This document shows positions 42,697-64,000 of a stretch of 64,000 nt of DNA, in pieces. Each line of letters starts with the position of its first letter. Position 1 is the first letter of the stretch. The stretch is from NCBI GenBank assembly GCA_965206595.1, contig OZ242214.1, positions 1,394,986-1,458,985 on the forward strand, read 5' to 3'. The notes below the pieces were generated by a model. That model ran no database searches and was not told the DNA's origin. It was given only the letters and a program-made list of their open reading frames with translations. Source of the stretch: Candidatus Latescibacterota bacterium. Its GTDB lineage: Bacteria; Latescibacterota; UBA2968; UBA8231. The position numbers and the translations under genes are program-made.

Positions 42697-44439
42697 TCAT
42701 TCGTACAGCTCGACCGCCGTTTCCCCGCGGGCAAAGCGCTGCGCCGTCTGCGCGGCCGACTGGGAGCCGATGCTGCGGCGGGCGTCCGTCGCCCAGCGGG
42801 CCAGGCCGACCAGAAGCTGGCCCCGGGCCGGATGCCCTGCGCAGTGCTCCCACTCGTCGAACACGGTGCGCAGCGTGTGCAGCAGCGACCAGCCGTTGTC
42901 GTCCTTGAGAATCGTCAGGCCGAGCTCGGACAGCAGCCGGTTCCCGGAGTGACCGCTGTTGAGGTAGTCTCGGGTCATGCGGCCGATGTCGCGGATCCGG
43001 ATCGACTCGACGGCCTCCAGGATAGCCTGCAGGGCCCCGTCGGCGGCGGGGTTCTCTCCCTGTTCCGGTTCGGAGCCTCGCCCCGGACGCTCGGTAAGTT
43101 TCCTGGTCGAGATGTTGAGCCAGCGGTTGTCGAAGAAGCGCCAGGCCGCGTGATAGCAGGCGCGCGCGGCAATGGCGAAACCGGCCTGTTTCTCAATTGA
43201 CCTGAGGCTCGAACCCAGAGCCATTTCCCATGCCAGGTCGTGCCAGCCAGGGCTCATGCCGACCGGCGTGCGCGCCATGCGGTCGGCCGCCAGCAGCACC
43301 ATGGTCGTGGCGATCCGGTCTATCGAGGCCCCCTGTCTCAAGACCTCGGAAACGGCCCCGAAGGTCGTGGCGATATCCCCGCTCACCAGGGCATCGGAAA
43401 ATGCGTTCTCGTCGAAATCCCCGCCTCCGCCCTGCTTCGATGCCTCTTCGATCACTGCATCGGCGGCGGTGAACAGATCCATGGCCTCGCGCAGCACGTC
43501 CATCGGAACGGGCCGGCCGCGGCCGAGCATCTTTCCGGCGAGGTTGCAGACCAGCTCCTCGCTCAGATCCCATCCGAACTCGTCGAGCAGCTCGGCGAGA
43601 TGGGTGAGGTTCCTCAGGTTGTCCTGTTGCCCCAGGAAGTGGGGCAGCACCGCGCACTCCAGCAGCAGGGGAACGATGGCGCCGTCGTGACCCCGCAGGC
43701 GGCGCGCGGTTATCAGGCACTTCTCGATCCCCTCAGGCATCTTGTCGGAAGCGAAGAAGCGAACCCATCCGGCGAGCTTCGGCCAGTCGACCGGCGGCGG
43801 CAGAGGTTCCACCTGAGGGCGGTCCCCCGCCGTTCCCGCGGCGGCCGAGGCTGCCATCATCAGGGGGATCAGGCGGTCCTCCGGCTCGTAGCGCCGCGCC
43901 ACGTTCAACCCGTTGACGAACTGGGCGACGTCGTGGCCCCCGTTCTCGTGCCGGTGGGTGGTGATGTGCCCGCCCATGTGGCGCACGATCAGCTCCAGGG
44001 TTTCCCGCTCAGACACACCCTTGGCCAGCAGGATGGCGATCGCCTTCGACAGCGTCCAGCTGTCGCCGTTGTTGAGACCCTCCTGCAGCAGCAGGAAGTG
44101 GGCGTCGGGGCGCTTCGAGCCGCCACTGGCCACGTCGACGAAGACAGCCCCGTCCCGCACCTGCACCGGGAAGGTGTCGAGATCGTCGCAGCCCCCCGTA
44201 AAGCAGCCACCGCCCGCCATGTCGTAGCTGTACCCGTGCCAGTCGCAGGTGAGGACGCCTCCGCGGGCGATCCCCCTGGTGAGGGGGTAGCCCATGTGGG
44301 GACATTGGTTGTCGGTCGCATACAGCTCGCCGTCGTGAAGGAACAGGGCGACGCTGTGCCCATCCACCCGCACCGCTTTCGGCTTTCCCTCCTCGACCTC
44401 GGCGAGGTCGGCAACCCTCGCGAAGCTGTCCTTCATCAT
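42697..44439 (-). CDS. Rieske [2Fe-2S]-domain fusion protein, paralog 1 (N-terminal Rieske + ~450-aa domain of unknown function)
   Basis: Rieske ligand boxes CPHMGYPLTRG and CDWHGYSYDM about 17 residues apart; no family recognised for the C-terminal domain; conserved blocks shared with paralog 2 (e.g. LLAADRMARTPV). Confidence 0.8.
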   Translation of the reverse strand: MMKDSFARVADLAEVEEGKPKAVRVDGHSVALFLHDGELYATDNQCPHMGYPLTRGIARGGVLTCDWHGYSYDMAGGGCFTGGCDDLDTFPVQVRDGAVFVDVASGGSKRPDAHFLLLQEGLNNGDSWTLSKAIAILLAKGVSERETLELIVRHMGGHITTHRHENGGHDVAQFVNGLNVARRYEPEDRLIPLMMAASAAAGTAGDRPQVEPLPPPVDWPKLAGWVRFFASDKMPEGIEKCLITARRLRGHDGAIVPLLLECAVLPHFLGQQDNLRNLTHLAELLDEFGWDLSEELVCNLAGKMLGRGRPVPMDVLREAMDLFTAADAVIEEASKQGGGGDFDENAFSDALVSGDIATTFGAVSEVLRQGASIDRIATTMVLLAADRMARTPVGMSPGWHDLAWEMALGSSLRSIEKQAGFAIAARACYHAAWRFFDNRWLNISTRKLTERPGRGSEPEQGENPAADGALQAILEAVESIRIRDIGRMTRDYLNSGHSGNRLLSELGLTILKDDNGWSLLHTLRTVFDEWEHCAGHPARGQLLVGLARWATDARRSIGSQSAAQTAQRFARGETAVELYE

Positions 44440-44449
44440 GATCTCCTCT

Positions 44450-46216
44450 TCAATCGTCGAAGACGCCTACGGTGGTGCGGCCCTCGGCGAACCGCATCGC
44501 CGTGGTCGTGGCCGATCCGCTCTCCGCGTTGGTGCGGATGTCGGTGGCGTAGCGGGCGAGGGCGACCAGCAGCTGGGGCCTCGAGGGATGTCCGCACCCG
44601 GCCGCAGGGTCACCGGAGCCGCCCGCCTCCCACTCCTCCGAGATGGTGCGCAGCGTGGGCAGCAGCTGCGGCCCTGTGTCGTTCCAGAGAATCAGTCGCC
44701 CTAGCTCATGGAGAAGCCGACTGCCGTCGAAACCGGCATGCAGATAGGCGTGGACCTGGTCGCCGACTTGGGCGACCTGCAGGGTTTCCACCGAGCCGGT
44801 GATGGCGGCGATGCCGGCCTCCTCGGTTGCCCAGGCGTGCTCCCGCGCCGGCTCCGGGGTTGCGCTCAGGGGGTGCCTTGAGATGTTGAGCCAGCGATCG
44901 TCGAACAGCTGCCAGGCGAGGTGAAACAGACCCATGACGGCGACGCGATCTCCAGCTTCGGCCTGAGCGGTTCGCAGCGACCGGGCGAGATTCAGTTCCT
45001 GGGTCAGACACCCCCAGCCGGCATCGACGTTGACGGGAGTTCGGGCCATGCGGTCGGCGGCGAGCAGGACAAAGGTGGTGATCAGGCGTTCCAGGCGGAC
45101 CCCGGAGGCCAGGGCCGTGGCGACCCCGTCGAAAGAGCGATCGATGTCGACGCTCAACAGCGCTTCAACCAGGGCATCTTCGTCGTATTCGATCCGGGTG
45201 CGATCGCTTTCCGCGGCGCTGTCGATCGCCTGTCTGAGGGAGATCATCTTGTCGATGGCGTCCCGCTTGAACAGCTGCGGCTCGCCCCGCCGCTGGCCGA
45301 CGGTCTTGGAGCCGAGATTCAGGGTGAGCTCGGAGGCCGCTTCCCAGCCGAAGGATTGGGTCAGCTCGGTCAGGTACCCCAGGGTCTGGAGATTGTCGCT
45401 GAATCCGAGAAAGCCGGGCTGCGCGGCGCATTCGTACAGCAGCGGAAGGATGCGGCCCTCGTCCCCCTTGAGCCGCGCGGTGAAAAGGCACCTCTCGATG
45501 CGGTTATCCTGGCCGTTGCGGGAGAAGAGCCGCACCCAACTGGCGATGCGGTCCCAGGTGACCGGCTCCGGCAGGACGACCACCTCGAGGCGCTCCGACG
45601 CTTCCCCGGCGACGCAGGTGGCCGCGGTGGCCAGCGCCATCAGGCGGTCCTCGCCGTCGTAGCGGCGGCCGATGGCTATCCCGTTGACGAAGCGGGCGAG
45701 ATCGACGCCGGCGCCGGCGCCCCGCGAGCTGGCAACGTGTCTGCCGAAATGCCTGAGGATGACGGCGACGATGTCGCTTTCCGGTACCCGTCCGCGCAGC
45801 ATCAGGGCCATGGCCTTGGAGATCGTCCAGCGGTCCTCGTGCAGTAGTCCTTCACGCAGCAGCCGCAGGTGCTGCTCCCTGCGGCGGTAGGCCCCATCTC
45901 CCGGGCGAATCCAGACCTCCTCGCCGCGAACCTCTACGGGAAACACCTCGAGGTCGTCGCACATGTTGTTGAAACAGCCGCCCCCCTCGAGGTCGAAGCG
46001 GCGTCCGTGCCAGTCGCAGGTGAGAACGCCGTTGCGGATCGCCCCGCGCGTCAGCGGGTATCCCATGTGGGGACACTGGTTGTCGGTGGCGTAAATGCGG
46101 CCCTCGACGTTGAATAGGGCGATGCTGCGCCCTTGGCCGACCCGGACGGCCTTGGCGCCTCCCGGTTCTATCTCTTTCAAAGCCGCTACTCTGGTCCAAC
46201 CGTTTGCCGTTGCCAT
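44450..46216 (-). CDS. Rieske [2Fe-2S]-domain fusion protein, paralog 2 (tandem duplicate)
   Basis: Same architecture: CPHMGYPLTRG ... CDWHGRRFDLEGGGCF, collinear C-terminal domain (TTFVLLAADRMARTPV); 10 bp upstream of paralog 1 on the same strand. Confidence 0.8.
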   Translation of the reverse strand: MATANGWTRVAALKEIEPGGAKAVRVGQGRSIALFNVEGRIYATDNQCPHMGYPLTRGAIRNGVLTCDWHGRRFDLEGGGCFNNMCDDLEVFPVEVRGEEVWIRPGDGAYRRREQHLRLLREGLLHEDRWTISKAMALMLRGRVPESDIVAVILRHFGRHVASSRGAGAGVDLARFVNGIAIGRRYDGEDRLMALATAATCVAGEASERLEVVVLPEPVTWDRIASWVRLFSRNGQDNRIERCLFTARLKGDEGRILPLLYECAAQPGFLGFSDNLQTLGYLTELTQSFGWEAASELTLNLGSKTVGQRRGEPQLFKRDAIDKMISLRQAIDSAAESDRTRIEYDEDALVEALLSVDIDRSFDGVATALASGVRLERLITTFVLLAADRMARTPVNVDAGWGCLTQELNLARSLRTAQAEAGDRVAVMGLFHLAWQLFDDRWLNISRHPLSATPEPAREHAWATEEAGIAAITGSVETLQVAQVGDQVHAYLHAGFDGSRLLHELGRLILWNDTGPQLLPTLRTISEEWEAGGSGDPAAGCGHPSRPQLLVALARYATDIRTNAESGSATTTAMRFAEGRTTVGVFDD

Positions 46217-47409: not shown

Positions 47410-48581
47410 TAGTGTCCTGTCGTATAATTAACTGTACAAACAATTGAAGGTGCCGTAGGTTTCTCTTATCCCCTTTCTGAAAGGAGAGACCTATGGTGAC
47501 GGGGCGTCCATTACCGCCGTTAGAGCTGAGTCCGTCGGACCGGGAACGATTGGAATCGATGGCCAAATCCCGGAGCCTTTCCCACGGGTTGGTGCGGCGA
47601 GCCGAGATTAGTCTGCTGGCCGCAGAAGGCTGGCCCAATGAAGCCGTCGCCGCCGCCGTGGGTGTGACGCGTGCTACGGTCGGCAAGTGGCGCCGGCGCT
47701 TTCTCGAAAACGGGCTCCCGGGCTTGCATGATGAGCTGCGCTCAGGGGCGCCACGATCGAGTACGGATGAACAGGTAGCCGAGGTGGTATACAAGACCCT
47801 GAAGACCAAGCCCAAAGACGAAACACAGTGGTCGGTGCGCTCCATGGGCGAAGAAACCGGCTTGACCAAGGACGCGGTTCATCGCATTTGGCGCACGTAT
47901 GGTTTGCAGCCCCATCGACACAAGCACTTCACGCTTTCCACCGATCCTTTCTTTGTCGACAAAGTACGGGATATCGTCGGCTTGTACCTGAATCCCCCCG
48001 AGCACGCCCTGGTGCTGTGCGTCGACGAGAAGAGCCGGATCCAGGCGTTGGAACGAAGTCAGCCCATGCTGCCCCTGGGACTGGGATACGTGGAAGGGAT
48101 TACGCACGATTACAAGCGCCATGGCACCACCACCCTGTTTGCCGCCTTGGACGTAGCCACCGGGGAAGTGATGACCCAGTGCAAGCCCCGTCATCGTCAC
48201 CAGGAGTTCCTTCAGTTCCTGCGCCACATCGAGGCCCACGTCCCCGCTGACCTCGATATTCATCTCGTCGTCGACAACTACGCCACGCATAAGCATGCCA
48301 AGGTCAAGCGATGGTTGGCACGGCGTCCCCGATTTCACGTTCACTACACCCCCACCTATGCTTCGTGGCTCAATCAGGTGGAGATCTGGTTCAATATCCT
48401 TACCCGCCAGGCGGTTCGCCGGGACTCGTTCCGCAAGGTGTCGGAGCTCATCGAGCGCATCGAACGCTACACGGCCAAATGGAACGCCAACGCACACCCT
48501 TTCGTGTGGACGGCTACGGCCGATTCCATCCTCGCGAAAATCAAGAGACTTTGCGAACGAATCTCTGCGACACAACACTAG
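47410..48581 (+). mobile_element. IS630/Tc1-mariner-family insertion sequence, copy 2 (intact)
   Basis: About 1.17 kb; TA at both junctions; same imperfect 11-bp terminal inverted repeats as copy 1; single intact transposase ORF. Confidence 0.85.
47493..48581 (+). CDS. IS630-family DDE transposase (intact, 362 aa)
   Basis: N-terminal helix-turn-helix-like region, DDE-type core ([15 protein letters not shown] ... [19 protein letters not shown] ... [12 protein letters not shown]); RBS GAAAGGAGAG. Confidence 0.9.
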
Positions 48582-49156: not shown

Positions 49157-49597
49157 CATGCCGAGTGCCCTGGCCCCGGTCCGGGTCAGGCGAGCCGAGG
49201 TCCACTCCGGCTCCCAGGTAAAGTCGACGATGCACTGGCGTACCCCGTCCACGGCGAGCACGCGGTCGCGGATCGGGTTGCCGATGAATTGGTACTTCGG
49301 GCGGCCGCGGTGCGGCATCGTCATCAGGATCCTGGCCACTCCGTCGTCGACCCGCAGATCGTAGATGTACCCCATGTCGACCACGTTGCTGTCGATCGCC
49401 ATCAGCTGATCGTCTTCGACCTGGCGCAGGGCCTCCCATACAGAGCGTTTGAGCGCATGGTCGGCGGCGCCGGCATGGGTCAGGCCGGTCTCGCCCGGGC
49501 GCCCCAACCTTCCGTTGGCGGTTGCCTTCACCTCAGGTAGCTCTCCTTCCGAAACCGAAAGCGGGTTCAGCAGACGACGGCGCAGGTCCTGTACCAT
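49154..49597 (-). CDS. DUF59/MIP18-like (metal-sulfur cluster assembly-type) domain protein
   Basis: C-terminal 147 aa of ORF 49154..50158 from the ATG preceded by GGAGGAGA; domain pattern VWEALRQVEDDQLMAIDSNVVDMGYIYDLRVDDGVARILMTM...VDFTWEPEWT. Confidence 0.55.
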   Translation of the reverse strand: MVQDLRRRLLNPLSVSEGELPEVKATANGRLGRPGETGLTHAGAADHALKRSVWEALRQVEDDQLMAIDSNVVDMGYIYDLRVDDGVARILMTMPHRGRPKYQFIGNPIRDRVLAVDGVRQCIVDFTWEPEWTSARLTRTGARALGM

Positions 49598-50958
49598 TTC
49601 GCGGCCGTTCTCCTCCGGGTAGTGCGAGGCGAAGTATGCGTTCTTTGAAAGAGCGCCGACCCCTCCTGCAAATCCGTCCTGCCGTGGATGGGGGCGCGGC
49701 ACCAGATCTGGCCGCGGCCGAAATAGCTGAGGTTGGGAGGACCGCTGTGGTTCAGGGGGCCGCAGTTTTTCGACCGATGCTCCAGCCAAAGGGCTATGAA
49801 AGCGTCGCGGCTTTCGCGGCGGAAGAACCCGACGCCCCATTGGTCGTTCTCGTGGGAAACTGGCACTTCCCCTTCGTGCAGAATCCCCTCGCGGTCGATC
49901 CAGACGGAGTCGCTGAACGGCATCCCGTAGAACAGCCACTCGTCGTCGCGCACCACGTTGGTCTCGAAGCGCGCCAGCGCATCCATGCGGCTCTCCTTGA
50001 GGAACCAGGGGAGCCCGGCGTAGAAGGTGTAGGTCAGGTCCATGTGCAGCCGGCTCGGCGTAAACACCGGGTGCAGGGAAGAGCGAGGAAACCCCCAGCG
50101 GCGCACCTGCACGCACAAGGGGCCGCGAATCACCTCGTAGTTCGGGCAGCGGGACCACCCGGTTACGCGAAATTTTTGGTAGTTGCCGGAGCCCATGTAG
50201 TCGTGGCCCCAGTCGATTCCCGGAGGTTCGCCGTGCCCTTCTCCCCCGGTGTACAGCTCCAAGGGGGCGCCGTAGGGCACGATCCCGAAGCCGCGTCTGA
50301 ACTGCAGCCGCTGCAGCTGGCCGTTCTGGGCGGAAAGGTGGGCGGTGAAGTGGTTGCTGGCGATGCTGAGGCCGAACTCCTCGCCGCTGACCGCCAAGTC
50401 GGTAGGGTACTCCGGCAACTCGGCGTCGCGGTTGCCGTACAGAATCAGGTACCGGCCGCGGCTGTTGGCCGGCAGATCGACCTGGAGCAGCAGCCGGCAG
50501 CTTCGCACCTCGCCGTCGAACACCTCCCGACAGACCTGGCTCGGCACCTCGCGCAGGGTCCCGCTTTCGTCATCGATCCTGGCGACGCGAAGCTCGCGTC
50601 GCAGATCGGTTACCTGGTCGGCAGCAAATTCGACGACGCTCTCGACAGGCTCCCTCGATCTTTCCAGGCCGGCGCTCTCGGCGATCTCCAGGACCTTGTA
50701 GAAGGCCCATCCCCGCGCCCAGTCCTCCCACGGGTCCGGCAGCCCCGCCACGCGCCCGAAGCTCGAAGCCGGGGAGGGGGCCGCTTCGCCGCTGCCATGG
50801 CCGGACAGGTGCCGCTGGCGTTCGAAGGTCAGCGTCTCCTTGATCGACTCGGCCAGCGACATGGCGACATCGATGTTGCCCTCCCGGTGTGCAGTCTCCA
50901 GGAGGCGCAATTTCACCTCGACGCTGTCGGTACGGTGCCGGTATTCGGTCTCTGGCAT
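49567..50958 (-). CDS. Hypothetical cytoplasmic protein (463 aa, no family recognised)
   Basis: Start at internal ATG 50958 (MPETEYRHRTDSVEV) with AGGAGAAAG RBS; the upstream 216 codons of ORF 49567..51606 are not credited; C-terminal ~25 aa look low-complexity. Confidence 0.5.
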   Translation of the reverse strand: MPETEYRHRTDSVEVKLRLLETAHREGNIDVAMSLAESIKETLTFERQRHLSGHGSGEAAPSPASSFGRVAGLPDPWEDWARGWAFYKVLEIAESAGLERSREPVESVVEFAADQVTDLRRELRVARIDDESGTLREVPSQVCREVFDGEVRSCRLLLQVDLPANSRGRYLILYGNRDAELPEYPTDLAVSGEEFGLSIASNHFTAHLSAQNGQLQRLQFRRGFGIVPYGAPLELYTGGEGHGEPPGIDWGHDYMGSGNYQKFRVTGWSRCPNYEVIRGPLCVQVRRWGFPRSSLHPVFTPSRLHMDLTYTFYAGLPWFLKESRMDALARFETNVVRDDEWLFYGMPFSDSVWIDREGILHEGEVPVSHENDQWGVGFFRRESRDAFIALWLEHRSKNCGPLNHSGPPNLSYFGRGQIWCRAPIHGRTDLQEGSALFQRTHTSPRTTRRRTAAKWYRTCAVVC

Positions 50959-51080
50959 TCTTCTTTCTCCTGTTCGGATCTCCGGCCGGCCGGCTGTCCG
51001 GCCTGGCACCTGGGCCGATCGCTTCAACGCAGTGGCAGGAAATGTCGGCAGAATCGAACCAGTCCCGGTCTCGGGGCTGG

Positions 51081-52112
51081 CTACGACTGCATGCAGGCCT
51101 CTGCTTCGGCTACGTCGTCGGCGCTGCCGATTATCAGGGGAGTGCGTTGGTGGAGGCTGTCCGGCACCAGGTCGAGTATGCGCGTGGTTCCGGTCGAGGC
51201 GCATCCGCCGGCCTGCTCGACGACGAAAGCCAGCGGTGCCGCCTCGTACAGCAGCCGCAGCTTGCCGCTTTCCGATTCGCGATCGCCCGGGTAGAGAAAG
51301 ATCCCCCCCTTGAGCAGGTTGCGATGGAAATCGGACACCAGGGAACCGATGTAGCGCCCCGAGTAGGGGCGGCCCCTGGGCTTGTCGTTGGCCTTCAGGC
51401 TGCTGATGTAGTTTCGGACTCCGGGAAACCACTTGTCGGCGTTTCCCTCGTTGACGCTGTAGATCTTGCCTCGAGAGGGGATGCGGATTTTCTGGTGGGA
51501 GAGCAGGAACTCGCCGAGGGTCGGGTCGAGGGTGAATCCGTGGGTTCCCCTCCCGGTTGTGTAAACGAGCATCGTGCTCGAACCGTAGATGATGTAGCCG
51601 GCGCACACCTGGTCGGTACCCCGCATGAGGAAGTCCCTTTCGGTGGGGCGCCGCCTTCTCCCTTTGCGCCTGTGGCGGTAGATGGAGAATATCGTGCCGA
51701 TGCTGACGTTGACGTCGATGTTGGAAGAGCCGTCCACGGGATCGAAGACGAGGAGGTAATCGCCGCTTGGATGCCTGGCGGGGATGGTGTAGACGTCGTC
51801 CATCTCCTCGGACGCCATGCCGGCCAGGTGGCCCGTGTGGTCGGTGGCATGGATTATCGTGGAATTGGCGAACTCGTCCATGTGCTTGACTTCCTCGCCG
51901 TGGACGTTGACGCGTCCGGTCAGGCCCATCACCTGCGCCAACCCCGCCTTGTTGACTTCGCGGGCGATCAGTTTTCCGGCAATGGCCAGGGCCAGCAACA
52001 GCTCGGAGAATCCTCCCCTGGCCTCGGGGAACCGGCGCTGCTCTTCCGTAATGAACCGGTGGAGGGTGGTCCCTCTTTCCATGCCGGGGAGTGGATCGGA
52101 TGAAGTCGTCAT
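51081..52112 (-). CDS. fbp: Fructose-1,6-bisphosphatase, class 1
   Basis: N-terminal TLHRFITEEQRRFPEARGGFSELL, later LVFDPVDGSSNIDVNVSIGTIFSIY and GKLRLLYEAAPLAFVVEQAGG; start at internal ATG 52112. Confidence 0.85.
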   Translation of the reverse strand: MTTSSDPLPGMERGTTLHRFITEEQRRFPEARGGFSELLLALAIAGKLIAREVNKAGLAQVMGLTGRVNVHGEEVKHMDEFANSTIIHATDHTGHLAGMASEEMDDVYTIPARHPSGDYLLVFDPVDGSSNIDVNVSIGTIFSIYRHRRKGRRRRPTERDFLMRGTDQVCAGYIIYGSSTMLVYTTGRGTHGFTLDPTLGEFLLSHQKIRIPSRGKIYSVNEGNADKWFPGVRNYISSLKANDKPRGRPYSGRYIGSLVSDFHRNLLKGGIFLYPGDRESESGKLRLLYEAAPLAFVVEQAGGCASTGTTRILDLVPDSLHQRTPLIIGSADDVAEAEACMQS

Positions 52113-53234: not shown

Positions 53235-53905
53235 CCTGTCTCCTCTGGTTTGGGTATGGGTTGTCCAGGGCAACCTACGGGAATCCTTCTCCTGCGACCA
53301 ACGCCGCGGGTGGAGCCTCGCGACCCCGTCCCTGGGGATCGGCTCGCATGCGGTAGAAATCCCTTATATCCGGATGCCAGGTACAGGATGGGTTGCGACC
53401 ACGGGCGCTCCCTTTCCCTCGATGCCCACAAACACGGGCCTGGAGGGAAAGGGAGCGGAACGCGCTCTACCTGCCGACACCGTACTACACTCCCGGCGGC
53501 CGTGAATGGGAGGAACTCGACCCCGTGCTGCCTGCCGGCTTCGACCCGGAGGGGCCGGCGGAGTTCGAGGATTTCTGATTTGGGGAAGAGTACGTGTCAG
53601 CTCCCGACGAGGGGGCGGGACCACGAATGCAGCGGTGGCGAAGGACTGCACGTGTTGAAGATCATCATGGGGCTGTTCGAGTCTGCCGCATACGGCCGTC
53701 GAATGGAAATGCCGCAGAAACCGGAGTCATCCCCTGCTGCGCTGGCGCCGGGAACACGGCCTCGGCGATCCAGGACCGTGCCGAGAGACTACGGGGAGTG
53801 GCTGGCGGTCGAGGATGAACGACTTGCCGGGAAGAGCCCGAACGCGTAAGTCCGGGTTCGTACCGAGGGGGCGGATGCCCCCGTAGCCACTGACAGCTGG
53901 GGGGA

Positions 53906-54772
53906 TCAGGCTGCTTCGGACAGGTTCTCCGGCATGTTCTCGAGCCTCGTCATCCAATAGTGGGCGTCGAAATTCCCGTCGCCGGTCAGAAATCGCCACA
54001 GCTTGATCCTGTTGACGATCTCGAGACGCCCGTCGGCCGCCTCGAACCAGGGCTCCTGCCGGTTGAGGATCGTCGGGATGCTGTCCTCTCTGTGGCTCGA
54101 ACCGCCGTAGATGATTTCCGGCCCTCCCCCTTCATCGAGGTCATCGGTGTTCCACAGTCGCAGCTGCCGCACCGTGGGGTTCAGGCGGATCTTGAACATG
54201 TAACGGACCCGGTCGGTCTTGTTCTGCCGGCCGCAGTGCCAGATGCCGTGGTGGACGACCGCCAGGGTGCCCGCTTTGCACACCATCGGCAGCTGTCCGA
54301 GGAAGTTCTGGTAGCGGCCGACGTCGAGCTCGTTGACGCGGCGGAAATGGCTTCCCGGAAGCAGCATGGTGCCGCCCATTTCCAACGGCACGTCGTGGGG
54401 GAAGTACATCAACTGGATGTCGAAGTGCATGCGCATGTCGATGATCGAGTCGCCGTGCAGCCCCTGGGCATGGCCTTCGTTCGGCTGGCGGACGTGAACG
54501 GCCTGATGGTCGAACAGGGGGTCTTCTCCGACCAGGCTCTGGATGATCCCGTGTATTTCCGGCATCCTCAGCATCTTTCCGACAGGAGAGGGGTCGGGGT
54601 AGCATTTCGACAACGGGGTGCCGGCGGGTTGGCTGTCGATGCCGCCGCCGTCGATCTCGGCGATCACCGCCCGATTGATCTCCCCGGGTACGATCTCGTC
54701 CAACTGAAGCACGCCGCGGGCCACGAATTCAGCCATCTGACTCGAGTTGAGCAGGTACTTTTTTTCGACCAT
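53906..54772 (-). CDS. PhyH-family Fe(II)/2OG dioxygenase
   Basis: Start at internal ATG 54772 (MVEKKYLLNSSQMAEFVARG) with GGAGGAGA RBS; H-x-D (LHGDSIID), distal His/Arg (IWHCGRQNKTDRVRY). Confidence 0.85.
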   Translation of the reverse strand: MVEKKYLLNSSQMAEFVARGVLQLDEIVPGEINRAVIAEIDGGGIDSQPAGTPLSKCYPDPSPVGKMLRMPEIHGIIQSLVGEDPLFDHQAVHVRQPNEGHAQGLHGDSIIDMRMHFDIQLMYFPHDVPLEMGGTMLLPGSHFRRVNELDVGRYQNFLGQLPMVCKAGTLAVVHHGIWHCGRQNKTDRVRYMFKIRLNPTVRQLRLWNTDDLDEGGGPEIIYGGSSHREDSIPTILNRQEPWFEAADGRLEIVNRIKLWRFLTGDGNFDAHYWMTRLENMPENLSEAA

Positions 54773-55050
54773 CAGTCGATCTCCTCCAGTTTCTCGAAGA
54801 TGAACTCGTTCTTTTGAAACGAAGTGGTGTACTCGGTGTCGGGGTAGGGAGGGATCAACTGCGGGAACTGGATCACCCTCCACCCGTCGAGCAGGGCGTC
54901 GAGGCCGGTTTCGTACGGCGGTTCGCTGCTGTCGCCGGTGGTGTGGTGCTCTTTTCCGGTGCCGTCGTAGAAGGTCCATCCCTTGACCGGGCTGTCTAGC
55001 GCCGAGTAGGACAAGTAAAGAATCATCACCTTCTGTCTGCGCTCCGGCAT
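54772..55050 (-). CDS. Small hypothetical protein (~90 aa) translationally coupled to the downstream PhyH gene
   Basis: Stop TGA overlaps the PhyH ATG (TGATG); candidate starts at ATG 55062 or 55050 (GGAG 8 nt upstream); sequence MPERRQKVMILYLSYSALDSPVKGWTFYDGTG...; no family recognised. Confidence 0.45.
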   Translation of the reverse strand: MPERRQKVMILYLSYSALDSPVKGWTFYDGTGKEHHTTGDSSEPPYETGLDALLDGWRVIQFPQLIPPYPDTEYTTSFQKNEFIFEKLEEID

Positions 55051-55135
55051 CTCCTTCTCCATCCCCAGAAGTGCTGGGTGTCGGGCAGTCACTCTTCCTG
55101 TTTCACCAAATGATAAGCACTTCCGGGCCCTGCCG

Positions 55136-56341
55136 TCAGGCGGATGCAGGCGCCGCCGGCAGGCTGACCAGGGCCCGGTCCCTGATCGGCAGGTGGACGA
55201 TCGCGGCCGCGACCCCGAGAACGATGGCCCCGACCCAGACAGCATCGTACGATCCGGTGGCATCGTAGATGCGGCCTCCGAGCCAGACCCCGAGGAATCC
55301 ACCGACCTGGTGGCTGAAGAAGACGATCCCATAGAGCGACGAGAGCCTGGCGGGTCCGAAGATCTGGGCGACGGTACCGCTGGTCAGCGGCACTGTCGCC
55401 AGCCAGAGAAACCCGATGGCGCAGGCGAAGATCAGGGCGGTCGCCGTGGTGACGGGCACCACCAGGAAGCCGCTGATGACCAGGGCCCGGGCGAAGTAGA
55501 GGAAGCTGAGAAGGTATTTTTTGCGGTAGCGATCCCCGAGCCGGCCGAAGAGATAGGATCCCCCCATGTTGAACAGCCCGATCAGGGCGAGGGCGGCGGC
55601 AGCGGCCATCTCGGGTAGCCCGTGATCGCCGAGGTAGGCCGGCAGGTGGGTGGCAATGAAAGCGACATGGAATCCGCAGACGAAGAAACCGGCGTTCAGC
55701 AGCAGGTAGCCCGAATGCTTGCCCGCCTGTGACAGGAGGCGGGAAAAGTTGTCCTCGAGGTCGGAGGTGCGGGTACCCTCCCGGGCATGCGATGCCGGAG
55801 GGAATCCGAGTGCGAAGAAGGCGATGGCAGCGACCACGGCGGCGCCGTACAGCAGGGTGGCCTGCCACGATACGGTGTCGATCAGCCACTGGATCAGCGG
55901 GACGAGGGCGAAGGTGCCGAAGGAACCGGCAGCGGTTACGATGCCGAAGGAGGTGACCCTCTTTTCGGCCGGGACCACCCGGCTGACGGCGCCGAGAAGG
56001 ACGACGTAGGACGTGGCGCTGAGAGCCAAACCGACGAGGACCCCGAGGGAGAGGAAGGTGAGCCAGGGACCGGTAGCGACGGCGAGGAGGACGAAGCCGG
56101 CGGTGTACAGCAGAGCCCCGGAGGCCACTACCCGGCGCGGGCCGATGCGGTCGGCGAGCATGCCGGCGATCGGCAGCCCGAACAGGATGTTCTGCAGGGC
56201 CATGGCGAGGCTGAAGGTCTCCCTGCCCGTCGACAGGGATTCCGTCACAGGTTGCAGGAACAGGCCGAAGGACTGCCTGGCTCCCATGGAGATGGCGACC
56301 GTGACCGCGCTGATCAGGATGACGAGGGTGGATTTCTTCAC
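55136..56341 (-). CDS. MFS-family transporter
   Basis: 401 aa; about 12 hydrophobic helices; typical cytoplasmic-loop motifs (GMLADRIGPRRV, GRLGDRYRKK). Confidence 0.85.
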   Translation of the reverse strand: MKKSTLVILISAVTVAISMGARQSFGLFLQPVTESLSTGRETFSLAMALQNILFGLPIAGMLADRIGPRRVVASGALLYTAGFVLLAVATGPWLTFLSLGVLVGLALSATSYVVLLGAVSRVVPAEKRVTSFGIVTAAGSFGTFALVPLIQWLIDTVSWQATLLYGAAVVAAIAFFALGFPPASHAREGTRTSDLEDNFSRLLSQAGKHSGYLLLNAGFFVCGFHVAFIATHLPAYLGDHGLPEMAAAAALALIGLFNMGGSYLFGRLGDRYRKKYLLSFLYFARALVISGFLVVPVTTATALIFACAIGFLWLATVPLTSGTVAQIFGPARLSSLYGIVFFSHQVGGFLGVWLGGRIYDATGSYDAVWVGAIVLGVAAAIVHLPIRDRALVSLPAAPASA

Positions 56342-56580: not shown

Positions 56581-57450
56581 CTAAGCGAAATACATCTCCC
56601 CGGAAAAAGGCAGGGGTTGCGAAGGCCGTTCGTAGTGGATCTGTTTCGGAGTCCTTTCGAGGGCCGCTGCCCACTGGTCGCGCCAGTCCTCGTAGCGGGT
56701 TTCCGACCCCGGGTCGCGACGGCTGCGAACCACGCTGCTGGGCCACTCCGGCCGCGGTGAGGGCTCCCCGGCCTTCTGGTAGCGCAGATCCATGCTCCAG
56801 CGCACGCCGTCGGTGTTGTTGGGGCCGGAGCCGTGCGGGGTCAGCTTGTGCACGAACAGCACGTCCCCCTTCTTCATCGGCAGCGTCACCTTCTCGACAT
56901 CGGGCAGGTCGTGGTGGTAGGTCCAGTAGACCATGCGGTTGCGGTGCACGCGGGGCAGAACCTGGAGGCAGCCGTTCTCCTCGGTGGCGTTGACGAGGGG
57001 CACCCAGACCGTCACCTGCAGGATCCCGGCAGCTTCCTGGGTGGTGAATACGGCGTCCTGATGGAAGATGACGTCCGTCGACGGCATCTTCGGGCGCACG
57101 TGAGAAACCGCGTTGCAGCTGATTTCGGGACCGATAAAGGGCTCGATGAGATCGACGAGGTTCTCGTTGCGCAGGAACTCGAAGGTGGCGCGGCGGCGAG
57201 TGACGCCGATATCGGGACAGCCGTCGACTTTCTTGGAGTCCTCGCCAAGCCGGGCAAGTCGGGTTTCGAATGGCTCCTCTGCGTGGAGATCGTCGATCTC
57301 CCCGCGGGCGTGAAGGTCCCTGGCGATCCCGTCGACGATGGCGATGTGGTCCTGGATGAGGGGTTCGAAATCGGCGTCGGTAAGTCCCCCTTCGACAACG
57401 ACGTACCCTTCTTCCTTGAAGAACTCGAGATGTTCGTCGGTGGTTTTCAT
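56581..57450 (-). CDS. PhyH-family Fe(II)/2OG dioxygenase
   Basis: Start at internal ATG 57450 (MKTTDEHLEFFKEEGYVVVEG); H-x-D (IFHQDAVF), distal His/Arg (KLTPHGSGPNNTDGVRWS). Confidence 0.85.
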   Translation of the reverse strand: MKTTDEHLEFFKEEGYVVVEGGLTDADFEPLIQDHIAIVDGIARDLHARGEIDDLHAEEPFETRLARLGEDSKKVDGCPDIGVTRRRATFEFLRNENLVDLIEPFIGPEISCNAVSHVRPKMPSTDVIFHQDAVFTTQEAAGILQVTVWVPLVNATEENGCLQVLPRVHRNRMVYWTYHHDLPDVEKVTLPMKKGDVLFVHKLTPHGSGPNNTDGVRWSMDLRYQKAGEPSPRPEWPSSVVRSRRDPGSETRYEDWRDQWAAALERTPKQIHYERPSQPLPFSGEMYFA

Positions 57451-61940: not shown

Positions 61941-62034
61941 CCGGTTTGGAGCCCCCGGACAGATCGGCACCGGTTCATTTTTTCCAGGGGAGCCAGGCGC
62001 GGGAATCCCGTTTGACAGCCTCGGGAACGGGGCC

Positions 62035-63102
62035 TTGTTTCCAAGCGATTACCCTGCCTCTGGACCGCCCACAGTGAATATCCCGACCCCAGCCATTTTC
62101 CGAGTCGCACTCCTTTTCCTCATTTCCTGCGCACCGCTCACGAAACCGGTGCCCGAACCCGATTCCGCTGCCACCGAGCCGGAGGAGGCGCAGGAAACCC
62201 CCCTTGAGCGTTACCTGCAAAGCAGGCCGGCGGAGGAGACCGAGACCAAAAGCAAAAAGCCCTGGATCGCCGTCCTGCCGATGAAAGACGAGTCTGGATT
62301 TCGCGAAGGTGTGTGGGATATAGAAAACGAGCTTCCAGCCCTGCTGACCGAGGAACTGGGCTCGCAGGATGTCTGGCGCTCCGTTCCGTACGACGCAGTG
62401 CGGCAGGTCGCAGGCGGTGCGCGCGATCACTGGCCCGACGAGGAGCTTATACGCGTCGCCGTTCTGTTGCGCGCCGACATCCTTCTGAAGGGAACGGTTC
62501 TCGACTACAACATGGAACGGTTCCATGTCGGAGATCCGCTCCTCGCCGGGTACAAATCCTTCAGCGGCATCGCCGAACTGGAGCTTAGCGCAATGCGGGG
62601 AGGGGACCTGTCGACGCTCGGAAGGCTGTATTCGAAGAAGGAGACGACCGACCGCGACCTCGGACTCGACCTGTTCGGCAAGCCGCGCGAGCAGGACTTC
62701 CAGTACGTCAATCTCGACAAGATGGCGTTCGGCTCCGACGAATTCCGCGCCACTCCCATAGGTGAGGCAACCGTGCAGGCGCTCGTCGAGGTGGGGGACA
62801 AGCTCTCCGAGCTGATTCGCCCGGGGAACATTCGCCTGGGAAGCGAACCGGCGAAGATCCTGTCGGTGTACGGCGACGAGATATTCATCAACCTCGGGAG
62901 CGAGAACGCCGTGCACAGGGGGTACCGCTTCGAAATCTACCCCGGGCCGGAGCGGGCAATCGAGAAAGAGCTGGACACCTTGGTGAGCGTGGGCTTGGTC
63001 GAGGTTGCCGACGTCGTCGGGGCGCGCGTATCTCGAGTCGTGATGATCGGCAACGGGGAAATCGCCTCCGGTGACCGCCTGAAATTCGTACAACCCCAGT
63101 AG
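62035..63102 (+). CDS. Putative lipoprotein (CsgG/LpoB-like motif IAVLPMKDESG); start uncertain
   Basis: Lipobox-like LLFLISCAP; ORF track opens at TTG 62035, an in-frame GTG at 62074 gives a shorter signal peptide (MNIPTPAIFRVALLFLISC); no family assigned confidently. Confidence 0.5.
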   Translation: MFPSDYPASGPPTVNIPTPAIFRVALLFLISCAPLTKPVPEPDSAATEPEEAQETPLERYLQSRPAEETETKSKKPWIAVLPMKDESGFREGVWDIENELPALLTEELGSQDVWRSVPYDAVRQVAGGARDHWPDEELIRVAVLLRADILLKGTVLDYNMERFHVGDPLLAGYKSFSGIAELELSAMRGGDLSTLGRLYSKKETTDRDLGLDLFGKPREQDFQYVNLDKMAFGSDEFRATPIGEATVQALVEVGDKLSELIRPGNIRLGSEPAKILSVYGDEIFINLGSENAVHRGYRFEIYPGPERAIEKELDTLVSVGLVEVADVVGARVSRVVMIGNGEIASGDRLKFVQPQ

Positions 63103-63123
63103 TCGAGAGAGGAAAGCCGGAAG

Positions 63124-64000
63124 GTGGAGGGAGTTGTCAAATACCAGCGGGGCCGCGGGTTCGTGGAGCTTCGCGACGTCGAGGAGCAGCCTCCCGGGCC
63201 CTCGCAGGTGAAGATCGAAGTGAAGGCGAGCGGGATCTGCGGATCCGATCTGCACATCCTGCACGACACGATCAACTACAACATCCGCACCCCGGTGGTC
63301 ATGGGCCACGAGTTCAGCGGCGTCGTGATCGAAAAAGGGGCCGGGGTCGGCGAGGGGGTGGCAATCGGCGATCGCGTCACGGGTGAACCGAGCATCGAGA
63401 TCTGCGGCAGCTGTTCCTACTGCCTGAGCGAACACTACAACCTCTGTCCTGGCCGCAGGGTGATGGGCTACTACCACAACGGCTGCTTCGCCCCGTACGT
63501 CAACGCCCGTTTTGTCCATCGCCTGCCGGACAACGTCAGCTTCAAGGCGGGGGCGGTAACCGAGCTCCTGGCGTGCTGCGTTCACTCCGTAATCGAACAG
63601 GCGGGGGTGGCTGCCGGTGACTTCGTCGCCGTCATCGGACCAGGGCCGGTCGGTTTGTTCTCGGCGCTGGTAGCGAAGGCGGAGGGTGGAACGGTGATGG
63701 TTTGCGGCACTTCCAGGGATCGCGAACGTCTCCGATTTGCCGAAGAGCTGGGGATCGATGAGACCGCGGTCGTCGACGGGACCGACGTCGCAGGGCGGGC
63801 GCGCGAGTTGACCGGGGGCTACGGCGCAGATGTCGTTGTCGAATGCGCCGGGGTGGCACCGGCCATCGACCTCGCTCTCGACATGGTGCGCAAACGGGGC
63901 AAGGTGTCGCAGATGGGGCTGCCCGGGAAGCCGGTGCAGGTCGACTTCGAGAAGGTGGCCTACAAGGAACTGCAGGTGAGCGGGGGGATCGGACAGAGGC
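63124..64000 (+). CDS. Zinc-dependent alcohol/polyol dehydrogenase (MDR family, sorbitol/threonine dehydrogenase-like), 3'-partial
   Basis: GTG start 63124 with GAGAGGAAAG RBS; catalytic-zinc motifs GICGSDLH and GHEFSGVV, structural-zinc Cys cluster CGSCSYCLSEHYNLC, Rossmann GPGPVGL; runs off the window end. Confidence 0.85.
   Translation, partial: MEGVVKYQRGRGFVELRDVEEQPPGPSQVKIEVKASGICGSDLHILHDTINYNIRTPVVMGHEFSGVVIEKGAGVGEGVAIGDRVTGEPSIEICGSCSYCLSEHYNLCPGRRVMGYYHNGCFAPYVNARFVHRLPDNVSFKAGAVTELLACCVHSVIEQAGVAAGDFVAVIGPGPVGLFSALVAKAEGGTVMVCGTSRDRERLRFAEELGIDETAVVDGTDVAGRARELTGGYGADVVVECAGVAPAIDLALDMVRKRGKVSQMGLPGKPVQVDFEKVAYKELQVSGGIGQR

Follow-up and report, generated by a model that had tools for sequence, protein, structure and literature searches.

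A conserved small protein encoded with one subfamily of PhyH-type oxygenases is a candidate partner subunit

What does a protein of about 90 residues, belonging to no recognisable family, do beside a PhyH-type oxygenase? The question is raised by a locus on contig OZ242214.1 of a Candidatus Latescibacterota bacterium, in which the gene for such a protein runs into the start of a divergent PhyH-family gene, here called PhyH1. The stretch of DNA that was analysed, referred to below as the window, is 64,000 nucleotides (nt) long, and the genes of the locus all lie on its minus strand (Table 1). The locus has its nearest match in a Candidatus Latescibacterota metagenome-assembled genome, where the small protein is 100% and PhyH1 96% identical. 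An original prediction from this DNA had proposed that the two genes are strictly coupled in translation, directly downstream of an MFS transporter, and that the oxygenase has in the small protein either a stoichiometric partner or a substrate. On the comparisons described here it is judged, with a confidence somewhat above even, that the protein of 92 amino acids (aa) serves one subfamily of PhyH-type Fe(II)/2-oxoglutarate (2OG) oxygenases as a dedicated partner subunit or domain.

The pairing of the two genes was followed from both sides. Recovery of genome loci through the small protein gave 80 loci, one of which was cut by a contig end, and a PhyH1 orthologue was immediately adjacent on the same strand in all 79 that had room for it. 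When a PhyH1 alignment was used as the query against an independent metagenome collection, the small gene was present at 78/78 loci with upstream room, and the two loci that lacked it stop at a contig edge. This co-occurrence with the PhyH subfamily, which had been suggested as a check of the prediction, covers loci from at least seven phyla (Latescibacterota, Gemmatimonadota, Chloroflexota, Deinococcota, Armatimonadota, Actinomycetota and, through the SAR11 group, Pelagibacteraceae), and the pairing looks obligate. The junctions are equally strict: the two genes overlap by 1, 4, 8 or 11 nt or are separated by a gap of no more than 2 nt in 71 of the 79 loci, so the overlap in the window is not due to chance and the predicted strict coupling is borne out. 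In actinomycetes the order is inverted, with PhyH followed by the small gene, and ATGA overlaps are kept. The adjacency has therefore been selected, by being re-created or preserved through rearrangement, and is not simply inherited synteny.

Distant members of the family follow the same pattern. Genes for small proteins only about 35% identical to that of the window are still paired and overlapping with a PhyH gene (L087, the P0250 contig and L086), and pairing persists as well in a second pair of L008. The latter lies on a Gemmatimonadaceae contig at 9898-10254 and 10299-10904, 5 kb from the first pair, and its proteins are 35% and 27% identical to those of the window, which indicates that the module was duplicated and diverged as a unit. 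In a set of 155 pairs, identity to the window pair co-varies between the small protein and PhyH (r = 0.81), and the small protein is the more conserved of the two in 136 of them (means of 71% vs 65%).

In one lineage the two proteins are joined. Fifteen distinct full-length fusions were found in which the small protein forms the N-terminal domain and is connected through a linker to PhyH; they measure 402-439 aa and are 55-83% identical to the representative P0147, whose PhyH part shares 47% identity with window PhyH1 over 287 residues. The linker is rich in Ala, Gly and Pro, roughly 30-70 residues long, and variable in both length and sequence. The fusions were met repeatedly, in several samples and on contigs as long as 668 kb, and are thus not assembly artefacts. 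They constitute Rosetta-stone evidence of a functional link, and the link is probably physical as well. An AlphaFold2 (AF2) model of a natural fusion gave a predicted local distance difference test score (pLDDT) of 82.5 and a predicted template modelling score (pTM) of 0.72, with the PhyH part mostly above 90.

Both start codons could be placed by homology. The small open reading frame (ORF) reads ...GAG ATC GAC TGA at its 3' end, and the A of this stop codon is the A of the PhyH1 ATG (54772..54770), in agreement with the overlap that had been predicted at this position. Homologues of PhyH1 align from residue 1-2, which sets the conserved start at the overlap and not upstream of it, the arrangement that would have spoken against the prediction; the 357-aa ORF that opens at 54979 is a mere upstream extension in the PhyH1 frame. 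Homologues of the small protein measure 91-93 aa and start with M-P/S/A-x-x-RQK, and this length and the conserved RQK near the start identify the ATG at 55050 as the start codon, which agrees with the predicted size of about 90 residues; the alternative upstream ATG at 55062 would yield 96 aa. The Shine-Dalgarno-like GGAGGAG lies 8 nt 5' of the PhyH1 ATG, within the Leu-Glu-Glu (LEE) codons of the small gene. The GAG GAG codons of the conserved C-terminus (...EKLEEID) would double as this element, and part of the C-terminal conservation may accordingly be a constraint at the nucleotide level.

The small gene is under strong purifying constraint. Its ratio of non-synonymous to synonymous substitution rates (dN/dS) against close relatives is 0.03-0.09, and comparison with the closest genome locus (L001) gave 9 synonymous and 0 non-synonymous differences. 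A search of 5.8 billion proteins returned 396 homologues at E<=0.01, and an exhaustive HMMER search of 1.84 billion cluster representatives returned 321 representatives (50%-identity clusters) at E<=1e-3, so the small ORF is conserved well beyond the window, a point on which the original prediction had been made to depend. The best 120 of the 396 homologues are 72-93% identical to the small protein and none of these 120 carries a Pfam domain; the public names are all 'hypothetical' or 'uncharacterized' protein. The 90%-identity cluster that includes the Pelagibacteraceae copy holds 662 member sequences, and individual members occur on up to 346 contigs. Conservation extends over the full length of the protein, with a mean column identity of 78%, and the family is described by the signature RQ-x2-hLhL ... 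W-x2-YD ... PPY-x5-A-x2-DGWR ... EFhFE(K/R)L. All members of the family share five invariant residues (Q6, L11, A52, G56 and W57), and six more (W25, P45, Y46, D55, R58 and E86) are nearly invariant. Separately, 11 stretches of P0174, a protein of 2447 aa with Ig-like repeats and the motif ...TATYNNGT..V.GW.V.GFDS..., match positions 32-68 of the small-protein profile; this is probably a coincidence of composition or motif and not homology.

PhyH1 is an ordinary member of a known superfamily. Its PF05721 match covers model positions 67-211 of 213, its orthologues and the fusions carry a precomputed PF05721 annotation, and it shows the double-stranded beta-helix fold. The residues H106-x-D108, H179 and R190 are invariant in 42 orthologues and are the predicted metal and cosubstrate ligands. 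Their individual roles, including that of R190, which lies 11 residues past the distal His as its counterpart does in human PhyH, are assigned here on the assumption that they correspond to those of human PhyH. PhyH1 is accordingly predicted to carry the complete catalytic apparatus, an H-x-D...H iron triad and a 2OG-binding Arg. Beyond the Pfam domain, a further ~90 aa at the C-terminus form a conserved helical extension (W..RLE..R..LWR.LTGD..F...Y...RLEN). The closest solved structures of the PhyH family are KanJ, HygX, PhyH, PHYHD1 and EctD, named for small-molecule chemistry, and SyrB2, which acts on carrier-tethered substrates; CurA is also among the fold-search matches of PhyH-type enzymes. 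The solved PhyH-family structures returned by these searches contain no counterpart of the small domain or of the C-terminal extension. A characterised close homologue of PhyH1 was not found, the best PDB sequence match having an E of 0.06 and the sole NCBIfam match 22.9 bits against a cut-off of 200.

The absence of a recognisable family for the small protein, as had been predicted, was upheld in each of the profile collections searched. The window protein has no match in Pfam at E<=0.1 and none in NCBIfam or PADLOC, 21 diverse members of its family gave nothing meaningful against Pfam-A at E<=1, and close and diverse alignments searched against PDB sequences returned only noise (E>0.4). An AF2 model of moderate confidence (pLDDT 79.7, pTM 0.69) consists of four strands and one short helix, and its least confident parts are the two most conserved loops of the protein, at residues ~30-47 and 62-80. 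Several identities were considered and rejected. An MbtH-like protein (PF03621) was discarded for want of a Pfam match at the thresholds above. An acyl or peptidyl carrier protein is at odds with the lack of a PP-binding match and with the predicted strands, and the serine that might carry phosphopantetheine (S20, in the motif 'ALDS') is not invariant, being Ala in P0233, P0198, P0398 and P0401 and Gly in P0277. A precursor of a ribosomally synthesised and post-translationally modified peptide (RiPP), or a PqqD-like RiPP recognition element, was dismissed because the whole length is conserved, neither PqqD nor any other Pfam family is matched, and DUF692 genes account for only 2 of 131 flanking genes. 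A sugar mutarotase of the RhaM/FucU/RbsD type found no profile or fold match, and a part in a defence system was set aside as the PADLOC scan returned nothing.

The pair is best accommodated by a two-part enzyme. Both genes would be translated from one mRNA by stop/start coupling, which would favour equimolar synthesis, and the products would assemble as a 1:1 complex that is the functional enzyme. Within it the small subunit may stabilise the catalytic subunit, or may complete or gate its substrate pocket. The likely contacts would be made by the strongly conserved DGWR and PPY motifs and by the conserved loops that are poorly modelled, possibly with docking on the C-terminal helical extension of PhyH1. 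Several points limit this proposal. A comparable small partner occurs in none of the solved PhyH-family enzymes returned by the fold searches, so the proposed role has no precedent among them. The AF2 model of the fusion left the confidence of the small-domain loops low (blocks of 55-60) and speaks neither for nor against docking. The greater conservation of the small protein is reversed in some distant pairs, as in that of L087, with P0246 34% identical and its PhyH partner 46%. Lastly, fusions and tight operons also arise between consecutive enzymes of a pathway, or between an enzyme and its protein substrate.

This last point leads to the other ways in which the locus may be read. The small protein could be a separate small enzyme or ligand-binding module, similar to a mutarotase, isomerase or tautomerase, that handles the same metabolite as the oxygenase one step earlier or later, with coupling and fusion serving pathway channelling. 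This is considered unlikely. Rosetta-stone fusions are indeed common between consecutive enzymes, the long and variable linker is of the kind found between autonomous domains, the gene contexts are sugar-catabolic, and W, Y, D, E, R, Q, T and S abound among the residues invariant in the close subfamily, as is typical of sugar-binding sites. However, the five residues invariant over the whole family would make a poor catalytic constellation, the protein resembles no enzyme family or fold in the searches made, and consecutive enzymes are not usually encoded as tightly as this pair, which is adjacent in 157/157 loci and mostly has overlapping junctions. The fusion-bearing cluster L081, moreover, already has a separate RhaM mutarotase. 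A role as a chaperone for folding or solubility, or as a factor that delivers iron, required for maturation of PhyH but outside the working active site, is given slightly less weight again. The genomic signature is that of MbtH-like proteins with adenylation domains, which are likewise small, highly conserved, co-encoded and occasionally fused. Against it, the small protein lacks conserved His and Cys as well as any acidic cluster that would suggest metal handling, and permanent fusion together with 1:1 translational coupling points to a stoichiometric rather than a catalytic chaperone role. The chaperone reading overlaps to a large extent with that of a partner subunit, from which sequence data cannot separate it.

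The least likely of the three alternatives is that the oxygenase acts on the small protein itself, hydroxylating a conserved residue such as P45, Y46, D55, W57 or R58 to give a switch that depends on O2, Fe or 2OG, or else a modified protein as the product. The very strong conservation would suit such a role, and the low-confidence conserved loops are modelled as flexible substrate segments would be. Yet a 1:1 fusion would turn the oxygenase into a single-turnover enzyme, the closest solved structures are named for chemistry on small molecules or carrier-tethered substrates, and catabolic operons are a poor setting for a signalling switch. In addition, W57 is the sole hydroxylatable side chain that is universally conserved, as P45, Y46, D55 and R58 each vary in some members. 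Of the two roles named in the original prediction, the partnership as such is well founded, resting on reciprocal adjacency in both gene orders, on the members of about 35% identity and on the 15 fusions, while the choice between partner and substrate leans towards partner.

The genes around the pair bear on its substrate. In the window these include a GH42-like glycosidase, an SDR, a seven-bladed lactonase, an FBPase and a zinc-dependent alcohol dehydrogenase (Zn-ADH), in addition to the MFS gene. The fusion of L081 is accompanied by MR_MLE (an enolase-superfamily dehydratase), SDR, RhaM mutarotase, AKR, ADH, Aldedh and FAA_hydrolase, a set of the L-fucose/L-rhamnose non-phosphorylative type. 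At L085 the order is AKR, small gene, PhyH, MR_MLE, AP_endonuc_2 and two GFO_IDH genes, and at L010 an ABC transporter, AKR, three MR_MLE, Amidohydro_2, AP_endonuc_2 and two GFO_IDH genes all lie on one strand. A LacI regulator and a sugar ABC transporter are found at L082-84, AraC and two GH2 genes at L087, and two CUT1 ABC systems with a sulfatase at the Pelagibacteraceae (SAR11) locus L077. Streptomyces pairs stand alone beside XRE, AraC or LacI regulators and GH6. The neighbourhoods thus vary but lean to the catabolism of carbohydrates and sugar acids. The solitary Streptomyces pairs count against the proposed enzyme in that the carbohydrate context is a tendency and not a rule. With this setting as the guide, the substrate would be a small molecule derived from carbohydrate, be it a modified sugar, a sugar acid or a lactone, in an oxidative, non-phosphorylative pathway of sugar breakdown. 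The enzyme would hydroxylate it, or would O-dealkylate it by way of a hydroxylation. PF05721 enzymes are known to O-demethylate the ribose of 2'-O-methyl nucleosides, acting as single proteins (PHYHD1/FJS; PMC12709175), which is a precedent for sugar-directed chemistry in PF05721 and not evidence on the substrate of this subfamily.

A conserved third gene was sought among 131 flanking genes from 34 loci and none was found, the commonest family, MR_MLE, reaching only 6/131 and MFS 4/131. The MFS transporter of the window does lie just upstream of the small gene on the same strand, as had been predicted, with a spacer of 85 nt, and it may be co-transcribed with the pair. Its orthologues are restricted to loci of Latescibacterota and Gemmatimonadaceae, where they lie upstream of the pair in L001-L002 but on its downstream side in L004-L007, and given this lineage-specific distribution and its low frequency among flanking genes it was rejected as a part of the module. 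A scan of the interval between the MFS and small genes for promoters and terminators found a single weak sigma-70-like site, which spans the MFS stop codon and the start of the spacer; one such site against 0.4 expected by chance is no evidence of an internal promoter. Among the flanking genes, strong matches to DUF692, the RiPP-modifying family of MbnB/TglH/ChrH, were noted in two of the 131 (best E 1e-89).

A second, conventional PhyH-family oxygenase of the window, PhyH2, is encoded just upstream of the MFS gene and has no small partner of its own. It shows weak NCBIfam similarity to sporadic-carbohydrate-cluster oxygenase and PhnY-like models, all far under their cut-offs. Genes resembling PhyH2 also occur a few kb from the pair in an Anaerolineae locus (L026:4177-4707) and in two of the five Pelagibacteraceae loci (L077:323-1270 and L078:2063-2887), a recurrence that hints at two oxygenase steps in one pathway. 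The gap of ~630 nt between PhyH1 and the lactonase gene holds no convincing ORF and no Rfam match, and an Rfam scan of the window as a whole gave no match; the same gap measures ~1.5 kb in the closest genome (L001, 7146-8660), which marks an insertion or deletion between near-identical loci. Further from the pair, the window contains two tandem large proteins, each with a Rieske [2Fe-2S] domain at the N-terminus and no annotation over the rest of its length, with an IS630-type transposase gene downstream of them, and two long ORFs that are candidate genes or GC-rich shadow ORFs.

Table 1. Positions of the paired genes and of other features in the 64,000-nt window.
Feature	Position	Strand	Size	Remarks
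Small protein gene	55050..54772	(-)	92 aa	MPERRQKV...EKLEEID; stop TGA 54774..54772
PhyH1 (divergent PhyH-family gene)	54772..53906	(-)	288 aa	PF05721, 35.3 bits vs cut-off 22
TGATG stop/start overlap, small gene/PhyH1	54770..54774	(-)		one shared base (CTGATGG), read from sequence
GGAGGAG, putative Shine-Dalgarno of PhyH1	54787..54781	(-)		read from sequence
MFS transporter gene	56341..55136	(-)	401 aa	PF07690, E 1.4e-39
PhyH2 (conventional PhyH-family oxygenase)	57450..56581	(-)		PF05721, 78.6 bits
Weak sigma-70-like site	55110-55139	(-)		CTGACG-18-TATCAT, 9/12 matches
PhyH1-lactonase gap	53274-53905		~630 nt	
Tandem Rieske-domain genes	42697-46216	(-)	580, 588 aa	
IS630-type transposase gene	47493-48581	(+)		DDE_3
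Long ORF	49567-51606	(-)	679 aa	no Pfam match at E<=1e-4
Long ORF	61975-63585	(-)	536 aa	no Pfam match at E<=1e-4

Oxygenases of the Fe(II)/2OG class are usually regarded as single polypeptides that need no partner for catalysis. If the proposed two-part enzyme is correct, an obligate partner of about 90 residues would define a new architectural class among them, and could explain failed attempts to express or assay proteins of this PhyH subfamily singly. Judging by the neighbourhoods, the breakdown of modified sugars may include an oxidative step that has so far escaped recognition, which would bear on carbon turnover in both the sea and the soil. A wider form of the proposal, to which a little less than an even chance is given, is that the small protein founds a new family of partners or effectors for mononuclear Fe(II)/2OG oxygenases, forming part of or gating the active site of the PhyH subfamily; the pair would then be the first two-component PhyH-type enzyme, distributed from soil Streptomyces to the SAR11 group of the ocean and acting on an unrecognised modification of carbohydrates. 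The data define a new protein family or domain entry, together with an annotation rule by which both genes are annotated together, and cultured hosts exist, among them Streptomyces scabiei 87.22, whose small protein is CBG68779.1.

The literature searched gave no description of the pair and the databases no annotation, and four things seem not to have been described before: the small-protein family, its obligate pairing with PhyH, the lineage of fusions and the C-terminal extension particular to the subfamily. The closest known systems of PhyH1 are the PhyH/PF05721 dioxygenases (human PhyH, PHYHD1, KanJ, HygX, EctD and TlxI). In SyrB2/SyrB1 and CurA Hal an oxygenase of the PhyH fold likewise works with a separate protein or domain of ~90 aa, but the small protein described here is beta-rich and not a four-helix bundle, and has no PP-binding Pfam match; no gene for a phosphopantetheinyl transferase or adenylation enzyme was present among the commonest neighbour families of the flanking genes. 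MbtH-like proteins offer an analogy only, in that they are small (70-90 aa), highly conserved and co-encoded with, and sometimes fused to, an enzyme that requires them, whereas they have no sequence or Pfam relationship to the small protein, serve a different class of enzyme (adenylation domains of non-ribosomal peptide synthetases) and differ in predicted fold. To our knowledge no effector component of the MmoB type has been recognised for Fe(II)/2OG enzymes. MmoB/DmpM effector proteins and the beta subunits of Rieske oxygenases act on diiron or Rieske centres rather than a mononuclear Fe/2OG site, and share no homology with the small protein, yet as small, non-catalytic and stoichiometric oxygenase binders that shape or gate the active site they provide the working analogy for the pair.

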